NCBI GenBank assembly: GCA_003141195.1
Contig: PLLC01000080.1
Coordinates: forward strand, 21,624-60,715
Origin: Syntrophaceae bacterium
Lineage (GTDB): Bacteria; Desulfobacterota; Syntrophia; Syntrophales; UBA5619
Direction: 5' to 3'
DNA: 39,092 nucleotides
The translations under genes and the position numbers were made by a program. Shown here piece by piece: positions 21,943 through 25,962 of this stretch. Every line of letters starts with the position of its first letter. Within the stretch, counting starts at the first letter, position 1. The notes under the pieces were generated by a model, which was given only the letters and a program-made list of their open reading frames with translations, was not told the origin of the DNA and did no database searches.

Positions 21943-21967
21943 GGGGACAGATTTCAAATCTGTCCCC
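21943..21967. repeat. 25-bp palindromic element (argB-argD intergenic), with degenerate tail copies to ~21982
   Basis: ggggacagattt c aaatctgtcccc followed by gtccccgtgtcccc. Confidence 0.95.
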
Positions 21968-21991
21968 GTCCCCGTGTCCCCGTGCATGCAC

Positions 21992-22882
21992 CTATAAAAC
22001 GATCTCTGTCCCGATCCCCTGGTCGGTAAACATCTCCAAGAGGATCGTGTGTTTCAGGCGGCCGTCCACGATATGGGCCTTCTTTACCCCGGCCCGGAGG
22101 GCCTTGAGACAGCACTTCACCTTGGGGAACATTCCTCCCGCGATCGTCCCTTCCTCAATCATCTGCCGGGTCATGCGGTCATCCATCGCTTGGATCAACG
22201 CTTTGTTGCGGTCGAGGACACCCGGAACGTCGGTCAGCAGGATCAGCTTTTCCGCAAAGAGGGCGGCCGCGACCGCGCCGGCCACAAGGTCGGCGTTAAT
22301 GTTGTAGGTCTCCCCCCCATCTCCGACCCCCGTCGGGGCGATGACCGGGATGACGCCGTCCGCCATCAGCGAGGTGATCAGGGTCGCGTTGATCTCCTTG
22401 ACTTTCCCCACGAGACCGATGTCGATGATCTCGGGCGGCGTGTCCCGGATCTTCTCCGCGCTCAAATAGTACTTCTCTGCCCGGATCAGGTTCGCGTCCT
22501 TGCCGCTTAGCCCCACCGCCTGGCCGCCGTGGCGGTTGATCAGGCCGACGATCTCTTTGTTGACCTTCCCCACGAGGACCATCTCGACGATATCCATGGT
22601 CTCCTCGTCGGTCACCCGCATCCCCTGGACGAATTTCGACTCCTTCCCCAACTTCTTCAGCAGACTGCCGATCTGCGGGCCGCCGCCGTGGACCACGATG
22701 GGGTTGATCCCGATATACTTCATCAGGACCACATCGCGGGCGAAATTGTCCTTCAGCTCTTCATCCGCCATTGCATGGCCGCCGTACTTGATCACGACGG
22801 TCTTGTTGAAGAACCGGCGGATGTAGGGAAGGGCCTCGACCAGGATGTCGGCCCGCTCCATGGATTTCTTCATATCGTCCAT
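21992..22882 (-). CDS. argB: Acetylglutamate kinase
   Basis: [32 protein letters not shown]. Confidence 0.97.
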
Positions 22883-22936
22883 CGACCTCTCCTCGTATGC
22901 TATCCAACCCCGATCTGCCTCCGGCCGTTTTGCCTG

Positions 22937-24319
22937 CTACAGGATATACCGGCTCAGATCCTCATCCTCGACAATCTCATCCAACTGGTCGGCGACATAA
23001 TCGGCGTCGATCACCACCTCCTGACCCCGCATCTCCGGGGCCTCGAAAGAGATCTTGTCGAGAAGTCTCTCCATGATCGTGTAGAGACGCCGCGCCCCGA
23101 TGTTCTCCATCCGGTCGTTCACCAGCGTCGCCGTCTCCGCGATCGCGGCGATCGCCTCCTCCGTAAAGGTGATCCGGACCCCTTCCGTCGCCATCATCTC
23201 CGTATACTGCTTGACGAGGGCGTTGTGGGGCTCGGTGAGGATCCGGATGAATTCGTCCCTGCCCAGGGAGTCGAGTTCCACGCGGATGGGAAAACGCCCC
23301 TGCAGCTCCGGGATCAGGTCCGACGGCTTCGTCGCACTGAACGCCCCGGCCGCGATGAAGAGGACGTGGTCGGTCCGGACCATCCCATAGCGGGTGTTCA
23401 CGGTCGATCCCTCGACGATGGGCAGCAGGTCCCGCTGCACCCCCTCCCGCGAGACGTCCGGACCGTGCGTCCCGTCGCCCCCCACGATCTTGTCGATCTC
23501 ATCGAGGAAGACGATCCCCGACTGTTCGACCCGTTCGATGGCTGTTTTCGTCACCTTTTCCATGTCCACAAGCCGCTGCGCCTCCTCCTCGGCGAGGATC
23601 TCCAACGCCTCGGGGACCTTCACCCGCCGCTTTTTCTTCTTCTGGGGGAAAAGATTTCCCAGCATGTCCTTGACGTTGAGCCCCATATCCTCCATACCGG
23701 CGGAGGAGAAGATCTCGACCATCGGTCCGCTCCGGACCTCGGCCGTCTCGATCTCGACGAAACGGCCGTCCAGACGTCCCTCGTGGAGGAGGCGCCGGAG
23801 CTTATCGCGGGTCGTATCCGGCTCGGGAACGTATTCCGCCTCGATCATCGTCCCGTTTCCGTTGGTGATCATGTCCGTCACCTTCTTCTCCACCGGTTTC
23901 GGCGGGAGAAGGATGTCGAGAAGCCGGTCTTCCGCCAGTTCGGCGGCCTTCGTCTGGACGCGGCCCTGCTCCTCCGACTTGATCATACCGATCGAAAGCT
24001 CCACGAGATCGCGAACCATTGATTCCACGTCCCGTCCCACATAGCCGACCTCGGTGAACTTCGACGCCTCGACCTTGATGAACGGGGAGTTATCCAGTTT
24101 CGCGAGCCGCCGGGCGATCTCGGTCTTGCCCACACCGGTGGGCCCGATCATGATGATGTTCTTCGGGGAGATCTCCTCCCCCATCTCCTGCGAGACATTC
24201 TGGCGGCGCCAGCGATTCCGGAGCGCGATCGCCACGGCCCGCTTGGCCTCCTGTTGTCCGATGATGTACTGATCCAGTTTTTCGACGATCTTTCTCGGCG
24301 TTAAATCATCCGGTGACAT
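22937..24319 (-). CDS. hslU: ATP-dependent protease ATPase subunit
   Basis: [46 protein letters not shown]. Confidence 0.98.
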
Positions 24320-24938
24320 GGCTACCTTTTTTGTTTCCGGGGACAGATTTCAAATCTGTCCCCTTTATAGATTTCAAATCTGTCCCCACCGGTTGTTCTT
24401 CTTCAAGGTCGATCTCCTCCACGGTAATGTGGTCGTTCGTATAGATGCAGATCTCGGAGGCGATCTTCACGGATTCCCGCGCGATCTCCGTCGCCGTCAA
24501 CTCGGAATAGCGGACCATCGCCCGGGCCGCCGCGAGGGCGAACGGTCCGCCCGAACCGATGGCCATGACGTTGTCGTCCGACTCGATTACGTCGCCGTTC
24601 CCGGAGATGATCAGAAACGAATCCCGGCTGACGGCAATCATCAGGGCCTCTAAGTGGCGGAGCACCCGGTCCGTCCGCCAGTCCTTCGTCAGCTCTACGG
24701 CCGCCCGGACCAGGTTTCCCTTGTACTGTTCGAGCTTCTGGTCGAAACGGTCGAAAAGGGTGAAGGCGTCGGCGGTCGCCCCGGCGAACCCGACGATCAC
24801 CTGGTCGTGGTAGAGGCGCCTCACCTTTCTCGCCCCGTGTTTCATGACCGTTGTATCGAGCGTCACCTGGCCGTCCCCGGCCACGGTGACCTTTCCCCGG
24901 TGTCTGACGGCCAGGATGGTCGTTCCCCGAATCTTCAT
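24306..24938 (-). CDS. hslV: ATP-dependent protease peptidase subunit with a repeat-derived C-terminal extension
   Basis: [33 protein letters not shown]; tail contains [16 protein letters not shown]. Confidence 0.96.
24339..24387. repeat. Palindromic element: full copy (24339-24363) plus tandem partial copy (24369-24387) inside the hslV 3' end
   Basis: ggggacagatttcaaatctgtcccc tttat agatttcaaatctgtcccc. Confidence 0.95.
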
Positions 24939-24941
24939 CTC

Positions 24942-25886
24942 TTAGGTCTTCCCTCCTCCGGCCCGCGGATGGGCACGGTCATAGATCTCCATCAGCCGGC
25001 TCACACTGACCGATGTGTATTTCTGCGTCGATGAAAGACTCTTGTGTCCCAGCATCTCCTGAATGGAACGCAGATCGGCGCCCGCATCCAGAAGATGGGT
25101 GGCAAAGGTGTGCCGCAGCGCATGGGGGCTGATCTTCCGCCCGATCCCGCTCTCCCGGACCACCCATTCCACCACCCGCGAGACGCCCCGCGGATTCATT
25201 CTTTTCCCCCTGGTGCTGAGGAAAAGGGCTTCCTGCCCTTCCTCATCCGTTCCCTCCTTCCGAAGCTCCGGCCGTTTCTGCAGGTAGGCTTCCATCGCCA
25301 GCAGGGCCGGCCGCCCAGCTGGGACGATCCGTTCCTTCCGCCCCTTCCCCCGGACCTTGACGAGCCCTTCCTGAAAACGAATATCCCCGAGGTTCAGCCC
25401 CGTCAGCTCACTCAGGCGGATCCCCGCGGAATAGAAAAGCTCGATCATTGCGCGGTCCCGGCGTCCGGCCGCATCCTCTGCAAATTTCACCTGGAGGAGC
25501 GCCAGCATTTCATCCGCCGACAGGACGACGGGGATGTATTTCTCGCACCGGGGGAGCTGCACGAGCTCCGCGGGGTTGACCGCCACCACCCCCTCCCGGA
25601 GAAGGTACCGGTAGAAGGAGCGCAGCGCCGCCACCTTCCGGGAGATGGTCACCTTCCGGAGTTTCTCCCGGTACAGCGAGGCCAGAAAAGAACGGATCAC
25701 CAGCGGATCCGTGGGGATCGCCCCTTCCACCCCGCCGGAGGGGACAGATTTCAAATCTGTCCCCTCCAAAAAGGCCCGGAACTGTTTCAGATCGGTTAGA
25801 TACCCCTCCCTGGTATGGGAGGAGAGATTCCTCTCGACCTTCATGTATCTGCCAAACTCGCCGATGGCCTGCTCCAGAAGACCCAT
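24942..25886 (-). CDS. xerC: Tyrosine recombinase XerC
   Basis: RNLSSHT..Y..DL, RDRAMIELFYSAGIRLSEL, GKGRKER, HALRHTFATHLL, LGH...STQKY; upstream of hslVU; alternative start 25898. Confidence 0.93.
   Translation of the reverse strand: MGLLEQAIGEFGRYMKVERNLSSHTREGYLTDLKQFRAFLEGTDLKSVPSGGVEGAIPTDPLVIRSFLASLYREKLRKVTISRKVAALRSFYRYLLREGVVAVNPAELVQLPRCEKYIPVVLSADEMLALLQVKFAEDAAGRRDRAMIELFYSAGIRLSELTGLNLGDIRFQEGLVKVRGKGRKERIVPAGRPALLAMEAYLQKRPELRKEGTDEEGQEALFLSTRGKRMNPRGVSRVVEWVVRESGIGRKISPHALRHTFATHLLDAGADLRSIQEMLGHKSLSSTQKYTSVSVSRLMEIYDRAHPRAGGGKT
25737..25767. repeat. Palindromic element inside xerC (extended to 31 bp)
   Basis: ggaggggacagattt c aaatctgtcccctcc, read in frame as [10 protein letters not shown]. 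Confidence 0.95.
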
Positions 25887-25900
25887 CTGTTGCCTCATCA

Positions 25901-25962
25901 GGGGACAGATTTCAAATCTGTCCCCAGTATTCCAGTGTCCCAAATCTGTCCCCAGTGTCCCC
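25901..25962. repeat. Palindromic element upstream of xerC (25901-25925) plus partial copies (25941-25953, 25954-25962)
   Basis: ggggacagatttcaaatctgtcccc ... caaatctgtcccc agtgtcccc. Confidence 0.95.

Follow-up and report, generated by a model that had tools for sequence, protein, structure and literature searches.

A 25-bp perfect palindrome, GGGGACAGATTTCAAATCTGTCCCC (element E), occurs four times in and between the arginine-biosynthesis, hslV and xerC-like genes of the window, the whole 39,092-base stretch of the Syntrophaceae genome analyzed here (G000). Our analysis indicates that E is probably a non-autonomous hairpin repeat, resembling repetitive extragenic palindromes (REPs) and derived from the terminal tips of TIRtrons, whose genes (TIRYT genes) resemble REP-associated tyrosine transposase (RAYT) genes. 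According to this reading, the left tip GGGGACAGATTT and the right tip AAATCTGTCCCC of TIRtron terminal repeats would have been joined head to head around one base, and copies would have spread in the past through a Y1 enzyme acting in trans on the single-stranded E hairpin. The cognate enzyme would since have gone from G000, leaving the present copies as an orphan population; these may be kept intact by another TIRYT paralogue, by self-correction of the hairpin, and/or by selection on a transcribed RNA barrier between cistrons.

Element E and the ends of TIRYT transposons

Exact matches to E begin at positions 21943, 24339, 25740, and 25901, all with the central C on the plus strand, and the rest of the window holds no further match at up to three mismatches. 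The preliminary description had reported four exact copies with the same centre within 4 kb and none elsewhere in the window, and this held against 100 shuffles, which gave no match. The copies and the partial copies adjoining them are as follows.

21943..21967: E copy 1, exact match, in the 78-nt argB-argD spacer, 24 nt past the argB stop and 29 nt ahead of the argD start
21968..21981: right-arm tip repeated in tandem (GTCCCC, GTGTCCCC) beside copy 1, by sequence inspection
24339..24363: E copy 2, exact match, translated as GTDLKSVP within the HslV C-terminal tail
24369..24387: 19-nt partial copy (E positions 7 to 25) beside copy 2, translated as GTDLKSI in the HslV tail
25740..25764: E copy 3, in frame in the XerC N-terminal domain (GTDLKSVP), the Pfam domain spanning the copy
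25901..25925: E copy 4, whose end lies 15 nt ahead of the probable start of xerC (ATG at 25886, preceded by a GAGG box)
25935..25962: tandem duplicate of arm end plus flank beside copy 4, with a 12-nt arm at 25942 to 25953 and tips on either side

Partial right-arm copies therefore adjoin three of the four copies, as had also been claimed from the sequence. These copies are not an assembly artefact, because contigs from independent runs bridge each one: the Logan contigs of run X12 cross all four with no differences, so the objection raised in advance fails. All four are likewise present in the strain of run X14, which is about 1% diverged, and a contig from an RNA library reads across copy 1. 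Farther upstream of xerC, at 26042 to 26065 in the 3' end of a 166-aa open reading frame (ORF), the sequence GGGGAGAGATTTTCAAGG resembles the left arm and centre of E without the right arm; it could be a decayed copy, or the likeness could be coincidental.

Exact copies in the genome of G000 (3.27 Mb, 108 contigs, 57% G+C) number 30 when the centre is C or G and 33 when any centre base is allowed, and 42 copies are found at up to three mismatches; three additional copies with a centre of 0 or 2 nt bring the total to about 45. Nearly all 12-nt half-sites lie within full palindromes, and no long element bearing E termini was found in G000. Coding calls and gene starts come from a purpose-made gene caller, which assigned 83% of G000 as coding; 24 of the 42 copies are intergenic, against 17% of the sequence being non-coding (p=3e-9), and 19 of these 24 lie between co-directional genes, close to the genomic proportion. 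Inside genes, E is in frame twice in Mfd (GDRFQICP and GDRFEICP), and also in a 1277-aa amidotransferase-like protein, an alpha/beta hydrolase, a NAD-epimerase, and an SbcC-like protein. In five further ORFs E is fused to the C-terminus, and in two the TGA within E is the stop codon. Several copies called inside ORFs lie at N-termini, where E is probably upstream of the true start, and one host ORF (on C39) looks spurious.

The genome-wide count thus bears out the idea of a dispersed REP-like repeat that is also tolerated in coding sequence. As for the two stop-free frames that had been listed as used, GTDLKSVP is indeed translated in HslV and XerC, while GDRFEICP is not a frame of the window and serves in mfd elsewhere in G000. 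We conclude that E copies survive only where they are tolerated, namely in short spacers of co-directional operons, at gene ends, and at in-frame spots in variable protein loops.

The arms of E point to its origin. Di Nocera et al. (2013, PMC3733652) gave the names TIRtrons and TIRYT genes to RAYT-like genes that lie between inverted repeats with a common GGGGWSAS box, some families of these repeats being self-complementary and moderately abundant; Quentin et al. (2018, PMC6006769) placed TIRYT genes in subclass 2.1 of TnpA_REP. The E arm starts with GGGGACAG, which fits the published outer box GGGG[AT][CG]A[CG], and a GGGGWSAS-type box stands beside the gene in 15 of 21 TIRYT-like loci. In G040, a TIRYT gene has GGGGACAGATTTATTTTCTT 53 nt before its start and ...AATAAATCTGTCCCC over its stop. 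We defined the cognate clade as genes with at least 67% identity to the G040 TIRYT, which gave 11 loci in 11 of the 201 genomes of the order. A terminal repeat starting with GGGGACAGATT is found in 10 of these 11 loci (one of them reads GGGGACAGATTG), on both sides of the gene in six, and the exact 12-nt E arm is present at one end or the other in nine. Paralogues at 45 to 46% identity carry GGGGTCAGAG repeats instead. Since the E arms are the outermost 12 nt of the cognate-clade repeats, E can be read as a head-to-head derivative of those ends, in which two terminal-repeat tips of one TIRYT clade are apparently joined.

Other palindromes of similar kind were seen. G000 itself has low-copy GGGGWSAS palindromes of non-E sequence, and at C11:27067-27125 a one-mismatch E copy lies 6 nt from such a palindrome, GGGGACACGATGCGGCATCATGTCCCC, making a small mosaic cluster. 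In the gammaproteobacterium G044, copies of a 45-nt quasi-palindrome, GGGGTCAGAGTAA...TTACTCTGACCCC, stand on either side of a Y1 gene (L206, G044:C2:1838773-1842096); they carry partial-arm duplicates as E does, and a third cluster lies 600 nt away. The whole has the look of a REPtron-like unit belonging to a sister family.

E copies are gained, lost, and decaying among congeners

By aligning 12 E sites of G000 to the orthologous DNA of up to 14 congeners, a comparison that had been proposed as a search for empty sites, we found empty alleles at all 12, and the congeners show empty, occupied, and decayed versions of the slots. In many slots, among them the hslV tail, three slots in the ribosomal-protein operon, and both mfd sites, E is exact in some species, while more distant ones have variant or decayed hairpins; at the hslV tail, congeners have either a K/E-rich stretch or E, exact or decayed. 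G005 and G009 carry a form of E altered on both arms (A8G/T18C), of which G005 has two exact and four near copies. G002, the nearest relative by identity (87 to 92%), is empty at every slot aligned. These comparisons show that the E family is dispersed and that its copies are gained, lost, and decaying slot by slot among congeners.

The centre base flips between orthologous copies, being G in G000 and C in G004. Because of this, the shared orientation of the four window copies, to which meaning had been attached, is little informative. A tie between centre-base orientation and the direction of transcription, which had seemed promising in the window and the ribosomal operon (about 20 versus 9 over all copies), was also considered and dropped in view of these flips. 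At the xerC site, 13 nt stand in place of the 25 in 10 of 11 aligned congeners, so that the E allele is a net 12 nt longer; the mfd sites are a net 18 and 15 nt longer than their empty alleles, and the epimerase site is longer by 18 nt in G015 and by 36 nt in G000. A sister palindrome with GGGGTCAG ends occupies E's mfd slot in G013 and G010. In the mfd genes of these two genomes (L284 and L289, respectively), an in-frame palindrome of about 55 nt, GGGGTCAGGTCTTGGGT.TTGAA..TTCAA.ACCCAAGACCTGACCCC, was observed at the position where G000 and G015 have E.

When single-stranded, whether as DNA or as RNA, E forms an 11-bp stem with a 3-nt loop. The predicted folding energy is -18.6 kcal/mol for E alone and -36 kcal/mol with flanks (z -5.3), and the flanks lengthen the stem by at least 3 bp in 7 of 33, 23 of 134, and 10 of 29 copies, versus 0.5, 2.1, and 0.45 expected. 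Copy 3 is such a case, its flanks GGA/TCC adding 3 bp to the palindrome; what had been described as "GGAG feet" of the xerC copy is therefore a locus-specific extension and not a conserved tag. At the epimerase site, G015 has a plain E after ...CGAAAA, and G000 reads CGAAAA-GGGGGC-CGAAAA-E-TTTTCG-GCCCCC. In G000, the TTTTCG to the right of E thus repeats the left CGAAAA in inverted orientation; G015 lacks this right flank, and the empty alleles lack both flanks. We rejected the targeting of pre-existing hairpin loops by E, since the empty epimerase alleles have no flanking stem.

The partial outer-arm copies adjoining E are tandem duplicates of arm end plus flank, and the duplicate upstream of copy 4 varies by strain, with 20 nt missing in run X14 and a 37-nt shorter form in the RNA-library contig. 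Hairpin-templated strand switching and slippage at quasipalindromes are established routes of mutagenesis, and they fit both the flank inversions and the duplicates of E. The palindrome itself is shown to drive local rearrangements, by inverted copying of flanks that lengthens the stem and by tandem duplication of arm ends with flank. In the run X14 strain, the xerC copy has two changes, both at synonymous third positions, so that copy evolves as coding sequence. None of the five terminator-like sites in 21500 to 26500 is an E copy, and E has no T-run tail; the Rfam 15 covariance models gave no match at E and two chance-level matches, both elsewhere.

Wider distribution, the mobilizing enzyme, and competing explanations

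With up to one mismatch, E occurs in 57 of the 201 genomes and 21 of the 65 genera of the order, and 13 genomes have at least 10 copies. In a scan of one genome per species, the exact 25-mer was found at at least 124 loci, and among the matches listed are labels of Syntrophales, other Deltaproteobacteria, Gammaproteobacteria, Nitrospirota, and Coprothermobacterota. The Gammaproteobacteria among these matches include isolates of Marinobacter and Halorhodospira and complete chromosomes of metagenome-assembled genomes (MAGs); single contigs among the matches listed are labelled Chloroflexota, Salibacteraceae, and Clostridium, and such single-contig MAG matches may be binning errors. Five Gammaproteobacteria have 17 to 75 copies each, spread along the chromosome. 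In the flanks compared, there was no conservation outside the 25 nt of E.

E is also carried by viruses, with 23 loci on 13 viral records of IMG/VR. In the record G046 (54,140 bp, complete according to CheckV; L241-L243), all 13 copies lie between 27.1 and 42.6 kb, within a 16-kb head module, versus none in the other 38 kb; they sit where the portal, protease, decoration, major head, and neck genes meet and at a later pair of genes. The record is temperate and siphovirus-like, with an integrase at 2844 to 4118 and a ParB-like gene at 24668 to 26428. Elsewhere among these records, copies of E stand on either side of a tail-tube gene, after a capsid gene, or in the gap that separates a Mu-like protease gene from the next one. 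The viral records with E yielded no Y1 gene.

The origin of E from TIRYT ends has to be weighed against several observations on the enzyme and on the insertion sites. The preliminary description had proposed spread by a RAYT/HUH transposase encoded elsewhere, and this was borne out only in part and indirectly: the arms do coincide with the ends of a TIRYT clade in other genomes of the order, but Y1 genes flanked by E itself number 0 of 36, 0 of 10, and 0 of 14 in three sets of loci (in the first two of which no E or half-site lies within about 1.5 kb either), and the cognate clade was not found in G000. The sole TIRYT-like gene of G000 (C19:130-819) shares 35% identity with the cognate clade, differs from it in its end box, and scores 61 bits with the NCBIfam RAYT model, below the 80-bit cut-off. 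The cognate gene was found in one of the 13 genomes with at least 10 E copies (G024, where the gene is cut by the contig end), and the 11 genomes with a cognate gene or remnant have 4, 0, 0, 4, 1, 0, 0, 17, 0, 0, and 7 copies of E. In the five E-rich Gammaproteobacteria, there is no cognate-clade orthologue, the best full-length match being 42% identical. Occupied and empty coding sites differ by frame-keeping replacement and not by a simple 25-nt insertion, in the run contigs, strains differing by about 1% show neither gain nor loss of an entire E, and the E sites have neither a clean target duplication nor a target consensus beyond a mild A/T bias. All these points count against the proposed origin and spread. 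Most genomes of the order are MAGs, 68 to 100% complete, in which "not found" is not equal to "absent"; single absences of a gene are therefore weak evidence, but the pattern over many genomes is not.

Three Y1 candidates for the mobilizing enzyme were rejected. Orthologues of the TIRYT/RAYT-like gene of G000 do not track E copy number, nor does the L261-type Y1 gene common to G001, G006, and G015, and these two failures likewise tell against spread by such enzymes. The presence of the cognate clade does not track E copy number either. The IS200 copy of G000 has ends nothing like E.

The uncoupling of E from its cognate gene can be read in other ways. In the first of them, which we think unlikely but serious, E is mainly a cis element selected by the host: a hairpin transcribed between cistrons that, as a block to 3'-5' decay or a mark for processing, sets the expression ratios within operons and is held exact by selection, possibly via a hairpin-binding protein. 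It would account for the ribosomal-protein-operon, hslV-tail, and mfd slots, where several species with coding DNA 82 to 92% identical to that of G000 hold exact E and where other species have decayed or compensated hairpins such as the A8G/T18C variant; the strong hairpin, the RNA-library contig through copy 1, the phage copies that bracket major head, decoration, and tail-tube genes, and the independence of E abundance from the cognate transposase are all consistent with it. However, copy number among congeners is patchy (0 to 71) and the nearest relative is empty at every aligned slot, some copies sit in coding loops and evolve by synonymous change, the arms are identical to transposon ends, and the hairpins neither match Rfam nor resemble terminators. 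Selection by the host and derivation from TIRYT ends are not mutually exclusive. The positions of E adjoining highly expressed cistrons suggest a possible role as RNA, and a candidate role of the hairpin in setting operon stoichiometry is plausible.

A bolder version of the transposon origin is one that we offer tentatively and consider rather doubtful: E would be an orphan replicator that escaped from a Y1 transposon and crosses phyla, plausibly on phages, remaining exact without its cognate enzyme, either because it is kept as punctuation of polycistronic mRNA, bracketing the cistrons of highest expression, such as those for ribosomal proteins and for phage capsids and tail tubes, or because a trans factor rewrites it. 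As a further corollary, the cognate TIRYT might remove E hairpins instead of spreading them, which would explain the few copies in gene-bearing genomes.

It seems very unlikely that E arises and spreads without any dedicated enzyme, through template switching in replication, slippage at palindromes, and ectopic gene conversion. Hairpin-templated copying of this kind would fit the flank inversions, the strain-variable duplicates, the flips of the centre between C and G, and the variants altered on both arms, but these are local processes, which leave unexplained both new loci and the presence of one 25-mer in different phyla.

Even less can be said for E as a miniature inverted-repeat transposable element (MITE) of a classical DDE transposon, or as a lox- or dif-like site for a site-specific tyrosine recombinase, in which a 7-bp core would separate inverted arms of 9 bp; we regard both as highly improbable. 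Although E has inverted terminal arms, a 9+7+9 reading is geometrically possible, and one copy lies in and another beside a xerC-like gene, there are no target-site duplications, and the flanks are often inverted instead. For a MITE, 25 bp is far under the usual 70 to 300 bp, no long element with E termini exists in G000, and the arms match Y1-transposon and not DDE ends; for a recombinase, some forty dispersed sites would scramble the chromosome. Faulty assembly or binning as the source of the copies can be dismissed almost entirely, given the bridging contigs and the fact that isolates and complete chromosomes also carry E. Readings of E as a mimic of an anticodon stem, as a parS-like site, or as a CRISPR repeat, considered from the sequence alone, were dropped because nothing supported them.

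Relation to known systems and surrounding genes

E belongs to a kind of repeat that is already known, namely REP-like repeats tied to RAYT/TIRYT genes, including copies in repair genes. According to PMC3733652 and PMC6006769, TIRtron/TIRYT repeats share with E the GGGGWSAS outer box, an end sequence tied to a RAYT-like Y1 gene, a moderate copy number, an arrangement in pairs or clusters, and, in some families, self-complementarity. Unlike them, E consists of only the outer 12 nt of each repeat around one base, is plentiful in genomes in which no cognate gene was found and scarce in those that have one, so that its abundance does not follow the gene, and occurs identically under several phylum labels and in phages. 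TIRYT genes bounded by inverted repeats of this sequence were found only in other members of the order, not in G000.

With REPs and REPINs (and the REPtrons to which they belong), E has in common the short palindrome, the dozens of copies between co-directional genes, and the link to Y1/HUH enzymes. Published work describes REPs within genes for replication and repair and REP ends that provide stop codons, and E is similar in lying in mfd, the SbcC-like gene, and xerC and in ending two ORFs with its TGA. In contrast to REPs, E has no GTAG/CGTC tag, begins with GGGG and ends with CCCC, and has flanks without a conserved tag; it is a perfect palindrome whereas REPs are imperfect, no RAYT gene is flanked by it, and it is not specific to a species or genus, as REP families are described to be.

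Like E, Rickettsia palindromic elements (RPEs) insert into functional genes while keeping the reading frame and lengthen surface loops by a short peptide. However, RPEs measure about 100 to 150 bp and occur in Rickettsia only, while E adds 4 to 12 codons and has arms that match transposon ends. Palindrome-associated transposable elements (PATEs) and the ends of IS200/IS605 resemble E, as proposed here, in being hairpin DNA that encodes no transposase and that Y1 enzymes are believed to mobilize in single-stranded form; they differ in having two different imperfect subterminal hairpins and defined cleavage tetranucleotides. A search of the literature, with the figures and supplements of PMC3733652 outside its coverage, did not find the E sequence, the only matches to its 12-mers being coincidental eukaryotic primers, and showed that few works treat TIRYT-type Y1 transposases, with three records found, of which two are versions of a single work.

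What is unusual in E is the identical unit across distant lineages, its decoupling from the cognate gene, and its marking of phage structural genes. The family offers a clean case in which repeat and gene are separated: in several phyla and in phages, the 25-nt hairpin to which the ends of one clade have apparently been reduced is thriving in the absence of the gene. It makes testable whether REP-like repeats need a transposase, how exact copies are maintained, and whether hairpins tune operon expression. In practical terms, E adds 4 to 12 residues to XerC, Mfd, HslV, and the SbcC-like protein, supplies stop codons, and can mislead gene callers at gene starts and ends.

The genes around the window copies, all on the minus strand, are argG, the ornithine carbamoyltransferase gene, argD, argB, hslU, hslV, the xerC-like gene, the 166-aa ORF, and the gene of a MiaB-like enzyme. 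Those next to or containing E are listed below.

20726..21913, minus strand: argD-like class-III aminotransferase (Pfam Aminotran_3, 3.1e-126; start from the gene caller)
21992..22882, minus strand: argB, amino-acid kinase (Pfam AA_kinase, 1.6e-48)
22937..24319, minus strand: hslU (Pfam AAA_2, 1e-34)
24306..24938, minus strand: hslV, hosting copy 2 in its tail (Pfam Proteasome, 5.2e-26; stop overlapping the hslU start)
24942..25886, minus strand: xerC-like tyrosine recombinase, hosting copy 3 (Pfam Phage_integrase, 5.3e-46, plus SAM-like N-terminal domain; start from the gene caller)

The Proteasome match in HslV stops at residue 176 of 210. Across the genus, HslV has a variable K/E-rich C-terminal tail with a stop overlapping the hslU start (window 24306 to 24410 and orthologues L013-L026), and the hslV tail region of G001 has an extra insertion of about 100 nt bearing a G/C-rich palindrome. 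In the spacer upstream of xerC (orthologues L014, L025, and L026 of window 25926 to 26010), G004, G011, and G006 hold a different repeat instead of E, made of tandem and inverted CTGAGTGCTGAGTAC-like units and reaching up to about 250 nt. Finally, a dispersed repeat of about 175 nt that is unrelated to E, with copies 82 to 94% identical, occurs in G000 and most congeners; its copies in G000 are the following.

C62:21-196, C3:46549-46724, C8:2608-2780, and C50:15274-15426: dispersed repeat of about 175 nt

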